From an uncultured Phycisphaerales bacterium (GTDB lineage Bacteria > Planctomycetota > Phycisphaerae > Tepidisphaerales > Tepidisphaeraceae): a stretch of DNA of 64,000 bases. The notes beneath the pieces were generated by a model, which worked only from the letters and a program-made list of their open reading frames with translations, was not told where the DNA came from and searched no databases. The stretch spans positions 160,001-224,000 of the forward strand of contig CAVWVQ010000005.1 in the NCBI GenBank assembly GCA_963758525.1. The letters run 5' to 3'. Of this stretch, positions 21,458 through 59,397 are shown one piece after another. The stretch's first letter is position 1. Each line of letters opens with the position of its first letter. The position numbers and the translations under genes are program-made.

Positions 21458-21645
21458 GCGGGGATAGCAAAAACCCGAACGAAGAAATGGGAAATGTGGA
21501 TCAAAATCCGAAGAATTCCACCCCCAGAGGGGGTGGCTTTTCTGATGCGCCTGAAAGCCACCCCCTCCGGGGGTGGAGCATCCTTTTGATCTATTCCTCG
21601 TTTGGGGTTTCGTCTTTTGCCCCCTTCGAATTCTCGCTATCCCGC
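21458..21645. repeat. REP doublet (REPIN-like) within a long imperfect inverted repeat
   Basis: TCCACCCCCAGAGGGGGTGGCTTT (21517-21540) is inverted against AAAGCCACCCCCTCCGGGGGTGGA (21554-21577), 1 mismatch. The outer arms are also complementary. Confidence 0.8.
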
Positions 21646-49012: not shown

Positions 49013-49791
49013 TCAAGCGGCTTTTGGCATCGCTGCCTGCTGCTTGTTGCTCAGGAAGCTCAGCAACTGCATTTCCACCACGCGGGGATTGTTGCCGGCT
49101 TGAATGCTCAAGACGCCCTGCAGGATGATTTCCTTGGCAAATGCCTCTTCCTGGGAACGCAGCAGCAGCTTCTCGGCGATCGGGCCGGCAACGAGGTTTT
49201 GCAGCATGCACCCGTAGAGCGTTCCGGTGAGAGCGATGGCCAGCGCGTTTCCGATGACGCTGGCGTCGCCGCCGAGGCTGCGGAACATCGCGACCTGGGC
49301 GATGAGCGTCGCCATCAGACCAAAGCCGGGGCCGAACTTGGCCAGCGTGTGAAAGAGATGTTTGCCGTGCTTGTGGCGTTCGACCATCGCATCGATTTCG
49401 ATGCGGAGGATGCGCTCGATCAAATCGGGGTCGGTGCCGTCGATGGTGAGCTGCAGGCCGCGGCGAAGGAACGGATCGGGCGCCTCGCGGGCGACGGTTT
49501 CCAGCGCCAGCACCCCGTCGCGGCGGGCGGTTTCCGCGTATTGCACCATTTCCTTGATAACGTGCTCAATGTGAGCGTCTTTGTTGAACAGCCACTTTTT
49601 GACATAGGAGACAACATTGGTGATGTTGTGCAGCGGCATCGAGAGGACGCCGCCCCGATCGATCCGCCGAACACCAGCAGCATTTCCGGCGGTTTGAAAT
49701 AGGCCTCGAGATGCCCTTCGGATGCGTGGAACATCGAAAAGACAACGGCTCCCCACGCGAGCACGATGCCGATCACACTGGCCAGATCCAT
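49013..49791 (-). CDS. motA: Flagellar motor stator protein MotA; frameshift near 49649
   Basis: MDLASVIGIVL, LLVFGGSIGA, ARRDGVLALE, DPFLRRGLQL.IDG, PGFG, GTLYG, GVLSIQAG.NPR. Confidence 0.92.
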
Positions 49792-50008
49792 TGCCGGTTC
49801 CTCGAATGCGAAGGCCGCACGATCGGCCTGGAATCGAACGACAGTGGTGGTTTACCACTATCCTCATTTCGGCATTCGGCAGCATGAGAATTGAACTATT
49901 ATCGGAACCGGCACGTCGCAGTGCCTCTGCGTGTGGCCGCCGAGCTTGCTCGCGGTCCGCGGCGTAATCACGCGAGACGTTTCCAATGACCCCAAAGGAC
50001 ATTGACCG

Positions 50009-50353
50009 ATGACCGAACAAACACCTCCACCGTCCCCCGTCCTCGCTCTGGTTCGCGACCTGCTTTTTGCCTCGAAGATCACCGGCACAGCCAAGGCTGC
50101 AGGAATTCCTGTCAAGATCATTCGCGATCCGAGCCACCTCGCAGGGCAGGCCGGCCGGCGTCTGCTGGTCGATCTCACGCTCGAAGGCGCGATCGACGCC
50201 GCCGTCGCATGGCACCAGCAGACCGGTCTGGACGTCGTTGGCTTTGCCGGTCACGTCGACGCCGATACCCTTTCCCGCGCCAAGTCCGCGGGCATCCCGA
50301 AAATTGTCTCAAAAGGCCAGTTCGTCCAGATGCTGCCGGAACTCGTCGCTTGA
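50009..50353 (+). CDS. Hypothetical protein with degenerate receiver-like fold
   Basis: RBS AAAGGA; ALVRDLLFASKI, LLVDL, VGFAGHVD....A..AG...V.KGQF. Confidence 0.7.
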   Translation: MTEQTPPPSPVLALVRDLLFASKITGTAKAAGIPVKIIRDPSHLAGQAGRRLLVDLTLEGAIDAAVAWHQQTGLDVVGFAGHVDADTLSRAKSAGIPKIVSKGQFVQMLPELVA

Positions 50354-51509: not shown

Positions 51510-52031
51510 CTAAACCACCCCCAAATCCTTCGTCGTAAACAGGCTCTCAAACACATACCCCGCCGACTCGAGATTCTGTCGTGCGCCCTCCATCCGATCG
51601 ATCACGGCCACAATTCGATCGATCTTCGCGCCCGCTTGCTCCAGCGTCCTGGCGGCTTCGAGGACTTGTCCGCCGGTGGTCAAAACGTCCTCCACAATCA
51701 GCACTCGCTCGCCGGCGTTGAGTGTCCCTTCGAGCAGTTTGCTGGTGCCGTAATCCTTCTTCTGATTGCGGATGATGACAAACGGCTTCCCGCACTCGAT
51801 TGCGGTCGTCGCGGCCAGCGCCACCGCTCCAAGCTCGGCGCCGGCGATGCGATCGACATTGCTGTTCACGCGGTTGGCGAACAATTTTCCCAATGCCACC
51901 AGAATATCCGGCTGCGTTTCGAAGAGATATTTATCGAGGTAGTAGTTGCTCTTGCGCCCGCTGCGGAGCGTGAATTCACCGCGCAATAAAGAAGCCTCGG
52001 CGATCCGCTTTGCCAGTTCTGCTTGGGTCAT
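51510..52031 (-). CDS. pyrE: Orotate phosphoribosyltransferase
   Basis: GEFTLRSGRKSNYYLDK, AG.ELGAV, KKDYGT, VLIVEDVLTTGG, VIDR.EG. Confidence 0.95.
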   Translation of the reverse strand: MTQAELAKRIAEASLLRGEFTLRSGRKSNYYLDKYLFETQPDILVALGKLFANRVNSNVDRIAGAELGAVALAATTAIECGKPFVIIRNQKKDYGTSKLLEGTLNAGERVLIVEDVLTTGGQVLEAARTLEQAGAKIDRIVAVIDRMEGARQNLESAGYVFESLFTTKDLGVV

Positions 52032-52080
52032 GGGCGCAATATTGCGATTGGGGTCGGCGGAGTCAAATCGTTTCGGCGCC

Positions 52081-52115
52081 GAAGCTGAAAGCCCACGGCT
52101 TAGCCGTGGGCTTTG
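52081..52115 (+). repeat. REP copy 1 (27-nt palindrome within a 35-bp repeat)
   Basis: GAAGCTGAAAGCCCACGGCTTAGCCGTGGGCTTTG, identical to 52550-52584. Confidence 0.9.
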
Positions 52116-52160
52116 TCCCGTGGATTTGCATCCGAAATTGTCGCGCGCGACACTTGATGC

Positions 52161-52727
52161 ATGCCGATCGCGTCACGTGCCGCGCCCGCATGGAACAACT
52201 GGTACCACGTCACCGTGCACGTCTACGGCTCGTGGCTTCGCGGCGATCCGCGCGGCTGGCGCGCCCGTCACCACCGCGAGCACGTCGAAGGGGATTACCG
52301 AAGTCCGCCTCCGGCGGGAGCCTTCGACCACCTCTACCGGCTCTCCAAAGCGTTGATGAAGCGCGATCGAATCCGGGTTGCTGCCGGTTTTCGCGAGTTT
52401 ATCGCCCGTGCCATTGCGGAGAAATTGCAGATCGATGCTATCGAAGTGCTGATCGTTTCGATGAGCGACAAACATCTGCATCTCCTGGCGCGGTTTCCGG
52501 ATCGGAATCCGCGGGAGATGCTCGGGTATGCCAAGAAATACGCGACGCAGAAGCTGAAAGCCCACGGCTTAGCCGTGGGCTTTGACCTCTAACTCGGAGA
52601 AGGCATCTGGGCGAAACGCTCCCACGCCGAACCCATCAGAAGTCGGGCGCATCAGATCCAGACCTTCCGGTATATCCTCGATCACAGGAAGGAGGGCGCG
52701 GAGGTTTGGCGATTCGACCGCCAGTGA
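52161..52727 (+). pseudogene. RAYT/TnpA-like HUH (Y1) transposase interrupted by an in-frame TAA at 52590-52592
   Basis: WYHVT.HVYGSWLRGDPRGW, DKHLHLL (HUH), K.YAT..L. The same frame continues past the TAA with LGEGIWAKRSHAEPI......TFRYILDH to TGA 52727. Confidence 0.8.
52550..52584 (+). repeat. REP copy 2, inside the transposase coding frame
   Basis: Exact 35-bp direct repeat of 52081-52115; translates as KLKAHGLAVGF. Confidence 0.9.
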
Positions 52728-52899: not shown

Positions 52900-52975
52900 C
52901 GGGGCGTAGCTCAGCTTGGTTTAGAGCACCAGACTGGGGGTCTGGGGGTCGCAGGTTCAAATCCTGTCGCCCCGA
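52900..52975 (+). tRNA. tRNA-Pro(GGG)
   Basis: Acceptor stem CGGGGCG/CGCCCCG, discriminator A; anticodon arm CCAGA-CTGGGGG-TCTGG; T arm GCAGG-TTCAAAT-CCTGT. CCA is not encoded. Confidence 0.96.
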
Positions 52976-53272
52976 TTCGACGAAACAAAAAGCCCTTTGG
53001 CGTTCATGTCATCTGGGTTCAACGCAGAGGGGTCGTTGTTTATCCCGCGCGCGAACCGTACGGCAGCGGGAGGCACCCATGCCTCACCGCCGGCGAATTG
53101 TGAGAAGGGCGCGTGGGGGCCGTTTCGGAGCCGCTCTTTGCGGAATGCCATCGGCGCCCGCAAATGCGCCTTGTTCCTCTTCCCCCAACTTTTCGCGCAA
53201 AAAAGTATTGATTGTGGCGCGGGAGGGAGACGACGCGCGTATAGTTTTCCATGTGGTACCAAGGCGGTTCCT

Positions 53273-53921
53273 ATGGAAGTAACAATTGTTCTTGCCGACG
53301 ATCATGAAATGATTCGATCCGGGCTCCGCGCTGCTCAAGCGGGAGAACGGATTGGTGGTGGTTGGAGAGGCCAAAGACGGGCGCGGCGCCGTCAAAATGG
53401 TCAGCGAGTTGCAGCCGCAGGTCGTGGTCATGGATCTGCACATGCCGGACCTCAACGGCATCGAAGCGGCTCGGCAGGTGCGGGCGGCCAGTCCGCGGGT
53501 CAAGGTGATCGGGCTCTCAGCCAGTTCTGATGAACATTCGGCTCACGAGATGCTCGACGCAGGCGCAGCGGGCTACGTTGGCAAGGCATCTGCCTTCGAG
53601 GACCTGGTCGCGGCCATCCGGACCGTGATGAGCAACAAGGTGTATATCAGCGAAGGCGTCGCCCGGGCGCATCCCCGTGCCGCAGCGGCAGGCGGCGTGA
53701 CGTCGACTGAATCAGCATTCGCGCCGGCCCTGTCGGCTCGCGAACGCGAGGTGCTGCAGTTGCTCGCCTCGGGAAAGGCCACGAAGGAAGTTGCGGCGGT
53801 GCTGCACATCAGCGTCAAGACGGCAGAGACGCATCGCCGCAATCTGATGGAGAAGCTGCAGATCGACAACGTTGCCGAGCTGACCAAGTACGCGATCTGC
53901 GAGGGGATCATCGCGCTGTAG
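53273..53921 (+). CDS. NarL/LuxR family response regulator; frameshift near 53330
   Basis: IVLADDH..IRSGLR, then LL.RE.GL.VVGEA.DG, VMDLHMP.LNG, LSAREREVLQL, TAETHRRNLM.KL. Confidence 0.9.
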
Positions 53922-53929
53922 CCCGGGCA

Positions 53930-56900
53930 TCATCCGGCCGCCTGCGAAGGATCAGGCAACAGTGACTTGACCACCGCGAGCAGTTGATCGGGATCGATCG
54001 GTTTCCCCAGATGTTGCTGAAACCCCGCGTCCAGCGCCCGTTGGCGATGGCCATCACCGGCAAACGCCGTAAGAGCCACCGCCGGGACCGGAGTCAGCCC
54101 GCTGGATTGCTCCCATTCCCTCAGGCCGCGCAGCAGGGAATATCCGTCTTCTCCTGGAAGGCCAATGTCGCTGATCAGCAGATCCGGCCGGGACTGCTTG
54201 AGGGCCAGCGTTGCGGTGGCGGCCCTCTCGGCCGCGATGACAACCGCACCGGCCTGCCGCATCAATTTGATCAGCGCGTTGCGGGTTGCCGCGTCATCTT
54301 CCACGATCATGATTCGCTTATCCGTCAGATCGACCGGATCCCTGGGCCCGGCGGGTTTCTTCTTCCTCCCCGCCTGCTTCAGTTTTGGCAGCGGCAGCCG
54401 AACGACAAACGTGGCGCCCCGCCCGATTCCGTCGCTGTGCGCGTTGATCGTCCCGCCGTGGAGTTCTACGAGCTGTTTTGCGATCGCCAGCCCCAGTCCC
54501 AGGCCGCCTTCCGTGCGCGTCGATGCAGGCTCAAACTGCCGGAACCTCTCAAAAACGTGAGGCAGAAATTCCGGGGAAATCCCGCGCCCGTCGTCCTTGA
54601 CGATCATTTCGATCTCATCCTGATTCCGCCAGAGCCGGACTTGGATGCTTCCGCCGACGCCCGTGAATTTGACGGCATTGTTCAGCAGATTCCAGGCGAT
54701 CTGACGGAATCGTTCGGCGTCCAATTCCACGACGCCGACGTTCTCGTCGAGCTCCGCGGTGACGGCAATGGTCTTGGCCATCGCGGCGGGGGCGATGTTG
54801 TCAAGGGCATCCTTCAGGATCGGCACCAGCTCGACGTTCCTGACGGCCAGGCGCAACTTCCCGCTGGTGATGCGGGAGACATCCAGCAGATCCTCGATCA
54901 GTCCCCGCTGATCTTCCGCGCTGCTCTTGATCGCGCCTAATCCCTCGCGAAGCTGCTCGTCGTTATGGTTGCGATTTTCGCCCAGCAGCTTCGCCCATAG
55001 AATGATCGCCGACAGCGGCGTCCGCAATTCGTGACTCAGGGCGGCGAGGAACTCGTCCTTCAGATGATTGGCTGCTTCGGCCTCCGTTCGGGCCGCCTGC
55101 TCGCGCCGCAGCAGTTGAGCGCGATCCATCTCGATCTGCTTTCGGTCGGTGATATCCAGAACTCCGCCGATCAGGCGAAGCACTTTTCCGTCCACTTTCG
55201 CGGTCGGGCGTCCATATCCGGCGATCCATCGGATGGCGCCGTCGGGATGCAGGGCGCGGAAGTCGGCGGCGTAGTCGCTGCCCTGGGTGAGGGCGTGTTC
55301 CAGCGCGCTCGACACGTTGCTGCGGTCGTCCGGATGGATGCAGGCGATGAACTGCTCGAGTGTGCCGGTGGTTTGGTCCAATGGAATCCCCATGAGGCGG
55401 TTGTGCGTCCGTTCCCACGTGATGACGCCCTTCGCAACGTCCCAGTCCCAGAAGCCCATGTGGGCTGCCTCGATGGCAACGCGAAAGCGCTGCTCGCTTT
55501 CGAGCAGCGCCTGCTCGGCGCGCATTCGCTCGATGAGGTGCGCCGCAAGCCGCGCGTATAACCCAGTCACCCGGAGGATGCGCTGCGGCGGCCGATGCGG
55601 CTCGCTGGCGTACGTCGTCAGGACTCCCTGCAACTCTCCCTGCCGCGTCATCAGCGGCGCGGCCTGCGCGGATCGTTGGCCCAGCGCGGCCGCGGCGCTG
55701 CGAGCGGCGACGTAATCTCGAGCCGTTTCAAAGTCCTCGACGATCACTTGCTGCCCTGCGCGAATCGTCTCGGCGGCCGCCGAACCGAGCAGCGTTTCGT
55801 TAAAACCGGGCTCAGAAACCGTTGCGGGGGTAAAGCCGCGATGGGCCGCGAGCCGCAACGACTTGCTCGCCGGGTCGAAGATCTGGATCGCCCCCATGCT
55901 CGTCTCATGCAGCGTGAGAGCGGCATCCAGAATTTCGTCCAGCGCCGAGGACAGATTGGGCCGTGCCATCAGCCGTTCGGTCAGCTCGTGCAGGCGTGTC
56001 AGAGTTGTCAGCTCCGCGGCGAGGCGTGACTCGCTTTCGCCCAGGTCGGCGGCGGCGCGGACCCGCGTGATCGCGTCCCAGACCCGGTGGGCCACATCCT
56101 CGGCGATCGCGACCTCGGCGGGTGTCCAGTCGCGTTCCGTCGCCTGGGCGATGCACAACACACCGGCAAGCCGGGCGTTTTCCATCCGAGGCACAGTGAT
56201 GTGGGCACGAATCCGCAACATCTCATAAGCAGATCGCTGCTTCCTGGAAAGACTTGCCTCCTTCAACACGTTGCAAACAACAACCGTTTTCCCGGCGCGG
56301 AGCTGTTCCAACAGCGCGGCGTCATAGCCATTAAAATCGTATCGTGCCCCCGGGCTCACACCCTCGCTGACGAATTCGCGGACGAACGTGATGGTGCCGT
56401 TCGGCGCAACCTCGCCGAAAGCCACCCGGCTGGCGCAGGCGCGCACCCAGCAATCGGCTTGATTCAGCCCTGATCTCCTCCGAATCGGTCAACAAGCGCA
56501 GCGTGTCGGAAAGGACAACCAGAAAGGCGTCCCGTTCGGCCATCTGCCGCAGCGACTCCTCCGATTCCTTGCGCCGGGTGATGTCAACAAAGGTGACAAC
56601 GACACCATCGATTCGGTTGTCGGTGGTTCGGTACGGAGTGATCCGCCGCAGATACCAACGGTTGGTGTCCGCGGGAATTTCCCGCTCGCAGGTGATCAGA
56701 CGCTCCAGTGCGGCTTGGGCATCATGGGTGAGATCGGGGTCGGAAAACTTCCGGGCAAGATCGCTGAGCGGCCGGCCGATATCGGAAGCCAGCAGATCCA
56801 GCAGATCCTTCACCGGCGGAGTGAAGCGGCGAATGCGAAAGCGGCTGTCCAGAAACAGCACTGCGATGTCGGTGCTCGTCAGCAGGCTGCTCAGATCGTT

Positions 56901-59156
56901 CCGCGCCGCCTGATGTTCCTCGATCTTCGCCTGCAACTGGCTGTTCACCGTCGACAGCTCCTCATTGAGCGACTGCATCTCCTCGCGGCTGGTCTCCAGC
57001 TCTTCGTTGGTGCTTTGCAGCTCCTCGTTGGTGCTCGTCACCTCCTCGTGGGACGCCTTGAGCTCTTCGTTGCTGGTCTGCAGCTCTTCGACCGTGCTCT
57101 GGAGCTCGTCGCGCACGCTCCGCAACTCTTCGTTCGCCTCTTGAGCGTCGCCTTGCGGAGGCGCTTCGCCGGGCTCGGCGCGCATCTCGCCGTACTCCCG
57201 GAAGCTGACCAGGAAATGATCGGGCGCGGATTTGAGATCCAGCGGCGAAGCAGTCACCGCAATACGCACGCGATGCCCCGGCTCCTTCTCGATCCATCCG
57301 TCCATCACCGACACGGCGGCATTTTCCGCCATCGCGCGATGCAGCGCCGTGCGAATCGGCGCCGCGCGCGCTTTCGCGCGCACAGCGCCAGCAGATCGCG
57401 GGTCGGCTCGCCGCGGGGAGCACTCAAGAACGCTTCGGTGCTGCCATGATAAAAGACGATGCGGTGATCGCGGTCGACCGCCACCGCGGCAGGCGTGTGG
57501 TCCTCGAGGAGCGCGCGAGTGATCAACTGTGGAAGCGACGGGCGGACGCCGGGCGGCCGGGCGTCGGGGGAGGTGCGGGTGTTGCGACCGGCGCCCGCCA
57601 CGACGGGCAGGGGAAACTCCACCGCGCCGTGCCGTGTTGGGCCGACGCGACGGAAGATGCGTGCCTTCTTGTCGAGGGGCTCGAACATGTCGTCGACGGC
57701 GCTGACCGCGGTTTCGCTGGTTCCCAGAAAAAGCGCCCCCTTCGCGAAGCCCAAAGTGCAGCAGCCGGAGCACGCGCTGCTGCACGGACGGCTCCAGATA
57801 AATCAGCAGATTGCGGCAGGTGGCGATGTCGAGCCGGGAAAAGGGCGGATCCTGCAGCAGGTTTTGCGGCGCGAAGACCACGTATTCCCGCAATTCCTGG
57901 CGAACGCGGTAAACGGCATCTTCCCTCTGAAAAAAGCGTTCGAGCCGCGCCGGCGACATCTCCGTCTCGATGCCTCCCGGATAGACCCCGCTCCGCGCGT
58001 TCTGCAGCGTTCGTTCCGCCATGTCGGTGGCAAACACCTTGATATCGAGGCGCTTCCCGCTTTTCTCCGCTTCCTCTGCCAGCAGAATGGCCAGCGTATA
58101 CGCCTCTTCGCCGCTCGAGCAGGCGGTCACCCAGCAGCGTACCGACGATTCATTTTCCCGCGCGGCGATTAACGGCGCGATCACTCGCTCGCGCAGCGTC
58201 TCCCACGCCTCTGGATCGCGAAAGAACCCCGTTACATGGATCAGCAGATCATCCGCCAGCGCCGTCACCTCCGAGGGGCTTTGCCGAAGCAGTTTCGCAT
58301 ACTCCCCGATCTCTGTGAGCCGGCTCAGGCCCATCCGCCGCTGGATCCGGCGGAGCACCGTGGGCTTTTTGTACCCGTTGAAATCCTGCCGCGTGCGGGT
58401 GCGCAGAACCGCGAGGATCTCGCGGACGTGCTGTTGTTCGCGCGCGAGCAATTGCGCCGCGTCCGTCTCCCGGCCGCCACGCGCATAAGGATGATCGGCA
58501 TAGGCCATCAGCACGCCGGCCATGTCTTCGGGGCGCAGAATGTAGTCGGCATAGCCCGCGTCGATCAGATGCCGGGGCATCGAGGGATATTGCGCCGATT
58601 CGGGATCCTGCGCGATGCACAATCCGCCGACCACCTTGATCGCCTGCGCGCCGGCCGAGCCGTTGCTCCCCATCCCGGACATAATGATGCCGATGGCCCG
58701 CTCGCGCTGTTCCTCTGCAAGAGATCGGAAGAAGTCGTCCACCGGCCGATTGTTCCCGGGTGTCGCGAGCCGTTCGCCCAGATGGAGCACTCCGTCTTTG
58801 ATTGTCAGCGTGTGACCGGGGCGGATCACATAAACATGGTCGGGCTCGATGGCAAGCCCCTCCTCCACCTCGCCGACATGCATGGACGTTCTTTTGGAAA
58901 GAATCTCAACCATCATGCTGTCGCGGTCAGGCGGGAGATGCTGAATCACCACATAGGCCATCCCGCTGTTGGGACGCACTGTTCGAAAGAATTCCCCCAG
59001 CGATTCGAGGCCGCCGGCGGACGCGCCAATGCCGACCACGGGAAACGGCAACCGCGGCGGAGCCTCGGCATCAATGGGCTGAACTTCCCTCTCGTCCGCA
59101 GCTCCCGCCGTCGCGGGCAAGTCGTTGGGGGCAATGGTCTCCTCATTGTCGGACAT
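53930..59156 (-). CDS. CheB-CheR-PAS-GAF hybrid sensor histidine kinase with receiver domain; frameshifts near 57735, 57370 and 56440
   Basis: CheB GIGASAGG/QHL; CheR VTGFFRD, ACSSGEEAY, CRNLLIYL; EELQSTNEEL coiled coil; PAS and GAF domains; HELRTPL H-box, N and G boxes; receiver SDIGLPGEDG. Confidence 0.9.
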
Positions 59157-59397
59157 GATTTGACTTTCTGCAGAGGCCAAGCGTGATGGAACGCAAGAGC
59201 CAGTCACATATATCTGCTCACTCTACCCTAAATCGTACGCCCGCCAACAACTGGCTGAGTGAGTTCGGCCGTTAACTAATTCGCGAGCGGGCCGGAGGCG
59301 ACCCTCCTCAATTTTACCGGTTCCGCGGATCGTCGGGGGGGCGTAAGTTTTTTGATTCGGAAAATGAGGGAGCCGTCATCTGATAAAGGAGGATCTC

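Follow-up and report, generated by a model that had tools for sequence, protein, structure and literature searches.

The locus and its two repeat copies

A gene of the RAYT (TnpA-REP) type lies in the window, the 64,000-nucleotide stretch of DNA analyzed here, together with two copies of a hairpin-forming repeat. The features, by window coordinate and strand, are:

51510..52031, minus: divergent neighboring gene, phosphoribosyltransferase (pyrE-like); context
52081..52115, plus: upstream repeat copy, with 7 nt of probably coding-derived flank, foot AAAG (52088-52091) and a CTTT extension
52092-52110, plus: upstream 19-nt core, 8-bp stem and 3-nt loop
52126..52154, plus: predicted sigma-70-type promoter (TTGCAT, 17 nt, GACACT), with its end 6 nt upstream of the ATG
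52161..52727, plus: RAYT / TnpA-REP gene of 188 codons, TAA-interrupted, of a Y-x-x-x-H family of Planctomycetota
52473..52481, plus: HUH motif, H105-L-H107
52539..52607, plus: mosaic segment, residues 127-149 (YATQKL-KAHGLAVGF-DL*LGEGI), covering the latter half of predicted helix alphaC plus the loop that leads to strand beta4
52550..52584, plus: internal repeat copy, in frame, with foot AAAG (52557-52560) and core 52561-52579
52590..52592, plus: premature TAA, private to the window's copy
52671..52685, plus: catalytic Tyr171 and His175 (Y-x-x-x-H), past the stop (Y in 188/191 loci, H in 179/191)
52900..52975, plus: tRNA-Pro(GGG); context

The exact 35-bp direct repeat described in a first-pass annotation of the sequence is present at 52081-52115 and 52550-52584, with a spacing of 469, and can be extended to 45 nt at 93% identity. 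Its 27-nt palindrome likewise stood, with a corrected fold: instead of a loop of 1 nt, both copies form a 12-bp stem closed by a 3-nt TTA loop (folding z -4.0 and -3.7). As first described, the internal copy is translated in frame, with KAHGLAVGF (KLKAHGLAVGF in the first-pass annotation) between the HUH motif and the tyrosine, and a TAA stands two codons past the repeat, after which the same frame resumes with IWAKRS...FRYILDH. The open reading frame 52161-52592 ends ...QKLKAHGLAVGFDL*, and the same frame runs onward as LGEGIWAKRS...FRYILDH to a TGA at 52725-52727; across the internal repeat and the stop it reads ...KKYATQKLKAHGLAVGFDL*LGEGIW...FRYILDH. Counted genome-wide with up to five mismatches allowed, the 27-mer occurs at two places only in the 6.47-Mb genome.

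A transcript from the predicted promoter would be leaderless. A loose form of the promoter pattern occurs in 16 of 27 near relatives versus 4 of 107 coding windows; a stricter promoter scan did not find the one at 52126..52154. The gene has the upstream repeat copy only, with no REP between its end and the tRNA-Pro gene. A 12-bp palindrome at 52072-52083 adjoins the upstream repeat and may explain part of the outer 5' similarity. For the pyrE-like gene, three family genomes gave matches of 68-80%, and the two genomes of the same genus gave only 33-34%. A search for an empty site found pyrE and tRNA-Pro not adjacent in five relatives; synteny is not kept.

A RAYT family with footed REPs

The first-pass assignment to HUH enzymes was borne out. 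The protein is a RAYT/TnpA-REP with a Y1-HUH fold, in which a single catalytic Tyr goes with an RRM-like architecture. Among 191 non-redundant loci, H105 and H107 are each kept in 190 and Y171 in 188, and 179 have His at Y+4; in the window's own copy the TAA cuts off the catalytic Tyr. The set was drawn from 291 loci, of which 262 had a hit; 20 were left out as partial, leaving 242 near full length, and 51 as near-duplicates, while genes with long insertions were kept. A structural model of an intact homolog (P0003; pLDDT 77.5) gave Foldseek and VIA matches to IS608 and ISDra2 TnpA and to E. coli TnpA-REP (4er8; Z 9.6, rmsd 4.3, 130 aligned). A sequence search of the PDB returned nothing relevant, so that the fold search alone gave relatives. 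Against the profile NF047646, the window protein scores 23.8 bits versus a curated cut-off of 80, a weak match shared by 47 of 48 members, and the PF01797 match also lies under its curated cut-off. At E<=0.001, 539 proteins match, many of them labeled RayT at source, and the Atlas gives automatic transposase names only; the named loci belong to Phycisphaerae and other Planctomycetota, the closest to Tepidisphaeraceae.

A footed flanking hairpin accompanies 125 of the 191 loci. The 4-nt foot, first found without prior assumption, is AAAG or AACG, rarely AAGG, and the sequence 5' of it is not conserved. In some relatives the short REP is dispersed: of 141 family genomes, 38 gave a match, with strand hits reaching 44, and the control gave 0. 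The window's genome holds only two copies of the gene's own REP; its 82 footed hairpins (versus 7 in a reversed control) are of other types. Paralogs in this genome are 41-61% identical, with no near-identical copies and no tnpB, and no conserved cleavage tetranucleotide of the IS608 type was found within 30 nt of the hairpin among 124 oriented REPs. An IS200/IS605 insertion sequence was rejected as an identification: there are no near-identical copies, no Y---Q motif, and no defined cleavage sites.

Several further arrangements of footed hairpins were recorded. Three paralogous RAYT genes share the window's genome (L002-L004; G000:C3:1697312, 3451436, 333634), one of them without its 5' end; each has 22-nt AAAG-family REPs, of two types with 21 and 14 dispersed copies. 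A dispersed repeat of ~230 bp, found at G000:C3:3845131-3846197 and about 20 other places, has at its end a 19-nt hairpin with an AAAG foot and a different sequence; it has 10 footed copies, lies at C3:3845131-3846197 inside a 534-bp tandem duplication, and is adjoined by no member of the window gene's RAYT family. REPIN-like inverted pairs of AAAG-footed 19-nt hairpins, of two further types, occur at window 21518-21576, G000:C3:376619-376675, C3:3043512-3043601, and C5:75431-75514. Five loci (L011, L099, L270, L279, L283) have 320-625 open codons upstream in frame and may sit inside host genes. In another genome (G067, L339-L353), many dispersed short REPs are part of a longer conserved unit, about 100 bp in size, and their loop, CCG, is that of the internal copy in the same genome.

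An inherited in-frame hairpin

The peptide KAHGLAVG or a variant occurs in 42 of the 119 top homologs, and an internal REP at the same site and in the same frame is found in 26 of 191 loci and in one partial gene. Carriers share 37 to 91% of their amino acids pairwise (median 49%). The AHGLAVG segment and its palindrome, or variants of them, recur in intact genes, the point on which the first-pass annotation had proposed an alignment of homologs; on this comparison of sequences, the internal hairpin is an inherited feature and not a one-off. In genes that lack it, the segment is shorter by about five residues, as in HASHSVRQHGLRTEEGG. A degenerate pattern for the internal copy retrieved only the window's genome among 401 genomes of the phylum, in which family f1 is hardly sampled, and none in viral contigs.

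Nine other loci have an in-frame match to their own flanking REP (reversed control, 0 of 157 at that score). In eight the match lies just past the HUH strand, with all three frames represented; the ninth, L165, has it at the window's site but in a different frame. These separate insertions in other lineages support the suggestion, made at first pass, that the enzyme put a REP into its own gene. That suggestion stands for an ancestral event; for a recent one it fails against the shared site in 26 of 191 loci at a median identity of 49%. In L072, L062, and L056, extra sequence lies just before the internal REP; in L056 and L062 the insert follows a duplicated KAH/KTH-like start, which suggests repeated events at one site.

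Probable constraint on the stem as DNA

A perfect 8-bp stem is present in 21 of 27 genes, versus 0.13 expected given the amino acids and codon usage; the other 6 stems are imperfect or decayed. Across 24 distinct sequences, with L241 excluded from the pair counts because of a deletion in its stem, 97.4% of cells are paired, with nine two-sided changes, no one-sided change, and no G-T wobble (0 of 500 shuffles). These compensatory changes alter amino acids: His/Val to Gln/Leu or His/Met, and Gly to Cys or Arg. Decay is seen in the four outer pairs (9, 19, 11, and 11 of 24), so the kept unit is the foot plus the 8-bp stem. At its edge, C6 is fixed in 27 of 27 genes; next to it, pair 4-24 has Watson-Crick pairing in only 10 of 27, even though the change restoring it would be synonymous. 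The Lys codon of the unpaired foot is AAA in 15 of 18 genes, and in 7 of 7 where its partner is lost. Codons beside the stem have mostly changed (same-codon identity 0.14-0.57), which speaks against a recent origin as the whole explanation, a point tempered by two invariant codons outside the stem (Ile 9/9, Arg 7/7).

Genes with an internal copy mostly have a single flanking REP. Both flanking REPs are present in 2 of 14 genes with an internal REP versus 58 of 97 others (Fisher p=0.003, on genes that are not independent), and none of the 4 genes in the window's clade has a downstream REP. Three internal-REP genes (L060, L064, L241) keep both flanks.

The main rival to selection on the stem is template switching, reported to keep perfect inverted repeats without selection (PMC5941160, PMC8794818). 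Under such a neutral history, a tolerated insertion would be kept as protein, template switching and occasional gene conversion would keep its DNA palindromic, and the hairpin would have no role. Protein constraint and symmetry correction together would yield the same codons; wobble intermediates are absent, a TTT/AAA loop inversion within one clade fits template switching, decayed copies persist in open genes (L241, L124, L036), and the published account of comparable insertions suggests that they affect the protein little (PMC6006769). The sharp boundary at C6, the conservation of a foot that is not paired, and the tendency of a flanking REP to be missing where an internal one is present speak against it, and we regard neutrality as unlikely, though a serious competitor. 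Boundary and foot favor selection on the stem as DNA, with the qualification that the sequences are related and the counts therefore overstate independence.

Probable exchange between internal and flanking copies

Internal cores resemble the flank of their own gene more than expected: identity averages 16.65 of 19 versus 15.20 in permutations (23 loci, 0 of 5000), and within clades 17.0 versus 16.13 (21 loci, p=0.00025). At 17 of 20 loci the internal foot is the same as that of the own flank. In the window, the upstream copy shares a further 7 nt beyond the foot, which encode the conserved K-L of the helix, and in L126 the shared stretch is 9 nt. Such 5' matches of at least 7 nt occur at 2 loci among 36 own pairs versus 6 of 9441 cross pairs, four of the six being L126's flank against its sister genes. 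Because the shared flank is conserved coding sequence, copying at these two loci likely ran from gene to flank, and the window's upstream copy was likely re-copied from the gene.

A flank copied from coding sequence, as the first-pass annotation had proposed, is therefore upheld locally by the 7 nt of coding flank. The extension of that proposal to the origin of REPs is unsupported, because REPs of the same family also flank the genes of relatives that have no internal copy. Internal and flanking cores are identical at only 4 of 23 loci (5 after reverse-complement rescoring), and the members of the L043/L115 pair resemble their own flanks no more than they do each other's; since many loci differ from their own flank, exchange appears to be occasional. 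From locus to locus, the flanking copy differs in spacing and in orientation. The dispersed REPs of genomes G067 and G075 (20 loci) carry no coding flank, which leaves the internal copy unsupported as template of genome-wide spread.

A mosaic segment and REP length

On a tree built without the insert columns (65 rows), carriers need six changes and a single carrier clade is rejected (AU p=0.0001); a 191-row quick tree agrees. The window's clade is placed within non-carriers, next to two paralogs from its own genome. Its residues 127-149 are 12-24% identical to those of sister genes, 61-94% to those of two distant carrier clades (L053 and L115), and 28-50% to those of a third (L010/L240). By these comparisons the segment around the internal REP is mosaic across clades, and the tree is compatible with gain or with repeated loss.

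The REP is 19 nt long in 20 of 20 carrier loci and 20-23 nt long in 102 of 105 non-carrier loci; the three 19-nt non-carriers (L061, L068, L129) have the long segment without the REP. This association comprises only two independent pairs (sign test p=0.5). Predicted helix alphaC spans 23 residues in the model of a carrier and 18 in that of a non-carrier. In E. coli TnpA-REP, alphaC enters the hairpin's minor groove (PMC3479197); the correspondence was drawn through the KK and W motifs and not by residue alignment.

These patterns raise the possibility that residues 127-149 set REP stem length while carrying the matching REP, so that recombination into a paralog would transfer both and the internal copy would then seed flanking REPs. 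The six changes and the rejected single clade, the segment's resemblance to distant carriers over sisters, the length association, the longer alphaC with its minor-groove counterpart, and the gene-to-flank copying in the window's gene (L001) and L126 all point this way. The two independent pairs, the three exceptions, the lower identity to the L010/L240 clade, and a tree that allows gain or repeated loss point the other way, and the proposal is for now doubtful. It is compatible with the binding-site reading set out below, and does not exclude it. Were it true, the same 27 bases would encode a helix extension selecting short-stem REPs and be the matching substrate; one recombined segment would bring a new specificity with its target and then seed flanking REPs, and a RAYT could change REP type without loss of substrate.

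The premature stop

At the stop position, 27 of 31 homologs of the same spacing have K, Q, or E, whose codons are one change from TAA, and none of 119 homologs ends there. Among 64 matched ORFs (23,965 aligned residues), we counted 7 frame changes and 12 in-frame stops, the latter all in 7 ORFs judged by eye to be antisense shadows. In the window, motA-like, response-regulator, and CheR-like genes (49013-50254, 53271-53921, 56331-59207) look frameshifted; with the frame changes, this is as in an assembly with indel errors. The real genes sampled contain no in-frame stop, which makes a nonsense change likelier than a base-call error at the TAA, the two possibilities between which the first-pass annotation had left the choice. 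The TAA probably arose by a recent single-base nonsense change, through which this copy would have lost the catalytic Tyr and become a pseudogene; it is unrelated to the hairpin and likely a case of ordinary recent decay. Programmed read-through was considered and rejected, as no homolog has a stop there.

The direct repeats had also been read as a self-excising or self-limiting unit, in which the 469-bp segment is cut out or the stop is a built-in limit on the enzyme. Two copies in the same orientation, with an internal site that the enzyme could cut, would suit excision. A limited search for a deletion product found no remnant of REP plus C-terminus in 30 REP loci, 20 partial hits, or 5 REP-rich genomes, and the flanking copy is inconstant in spacing and orientation; for limitation, stops are no commoner in carriers (1/26 versus 5/165, p=0.59), and no homolog ends at the site. 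We consider this reading improbable. An assembly artefact is scarcely credible: indel-type breaks affect the assembly (7 of 64 matched ORFs) and two read runs (0.05 word share) both fail to cover the gene, but the sampled real genes are free of in-frame stops, the duplication is real because the internal hairpin is present in many unrelated data sets, and an error in the stop alone keeps a minor though appreciable chance.

Interpretation and relation to known systems

We favor, as probable though well short of certain, the reading that an old in-frame REP at the predicted end of alphaC has been kept as a working binding site replacing one flanking REP. The lineage would long ago have gained the REP in frame, likely through the enzyme's own activity. 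Its 4-nt foot and 8-bp stem would serve as a DNA binding site standing in for one of two flanking REPs; the enzyme might bind this internal site when the coding strand is single-stranded. Internal and flanking copies would exchange sequence, the latest transfer at this locus having gone from gene to flank—by gene conversion, template switch, or the enzyme—and the segment may move between paralogous genes through recombination. The hairpin is the finding; the stop is of little interest.

The finding bears on the copying of REPs and on how a RAYT and its REP keep fitting each other while both change; the accessible parts of the literature examined demonstrate no REP movement. A REPIN is described as able to establish only where a compatible RAYT resides (bioRxiv 2021.07.10.451892). 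The family offers natural paired variants, with and without the 5-residue helix extension, with 19-nt or 20-23-nt hairpins, and with a foot other than GTAG; the window's copy adds a dated trace, a flanking REP bearing coding flank. A literature search outside subscription journals found nothing on this REP family, on the fixed alphaC insertion, or on its concerted evolution with the flank. What is new is the Y-x-x-x-H family with AAAG/AACG-footed REPs, the fixed alphaC site, and the concerted evolution; in-gene REPs were already known.

The first-pass statement that hairpins flank and never lie within such genes was wrong, for in-gene hairpins of tnpA-REP are published: Quentin et al. 2018 (PMC6006769) describe in-frame REP insertions as unique to subclass 2.4 (Bertels group 4). 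The window family resembles subclass 2.4 in having in-frame insertions between HUH and Y, and its second site, just after the HUH strand, matches the beta3-alphaC site of 2.4. In that description, however, 2.4 insertions are variable and remote from the DNA surface, whereas those of the window family are fixed in site and frame at the alphaC end. The motifs differ (xHuH, W[AG], and Y-I-x-x-H here; NH[IFV]H, WQ, and YIxNNP in 2.4), as do the feet (AAAG/AACG; GT[AG]G), and the accessible part of Table S1 of PMC6006769 lists no AAGCCC-type REPs. TnpA-Y1 class 3 of the same study is similar in being mostly from Planctomycetes and in its extended conserved N-terminus, and the window family's profile matches distant homologs with class-3-like motifs (L005, L025). 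Class 3, as described, has NHVH, W[TA], Y----Q, bulged REPs, and a CnGA foot; the window family has Y---H and perfect stems, and a CnGA foot, considered because CTGA precedes the window's hairpin, was rejected as not conserved. Set against these published descriptions, the window family appears, in its motifs and its foot, to belong to neither subclass 2.4 nor class 3.

Other systems share single traits. REPtron Sm of Stenotrophomonas maltophilia (group 3 / subclass 2.5) has a 23-nt REP with an 8-bp perfect stem, a 3-nt loop, and a conserved tetranucleotide, as here, but its foot is GTAG, and the available description mentions no internal copy (PMC8266576). IS608 TnpA (IS200/IS605) has the same fold, and its left-end guide tetranucleotide, AAAG, is the commonest foot here (PMC3201880); unlike IS608, the window family is without tnpB, near-identical copies, or a conserved cleavage tetranucleotide. 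Intragenic REPs and the RPEs of Rickettsia are, as here, palindromic repeats translated in frame; those described lie in unrelated host genes (PMC3733652), whereas here the repeat lies in the enzyme's own predicted binding helix.
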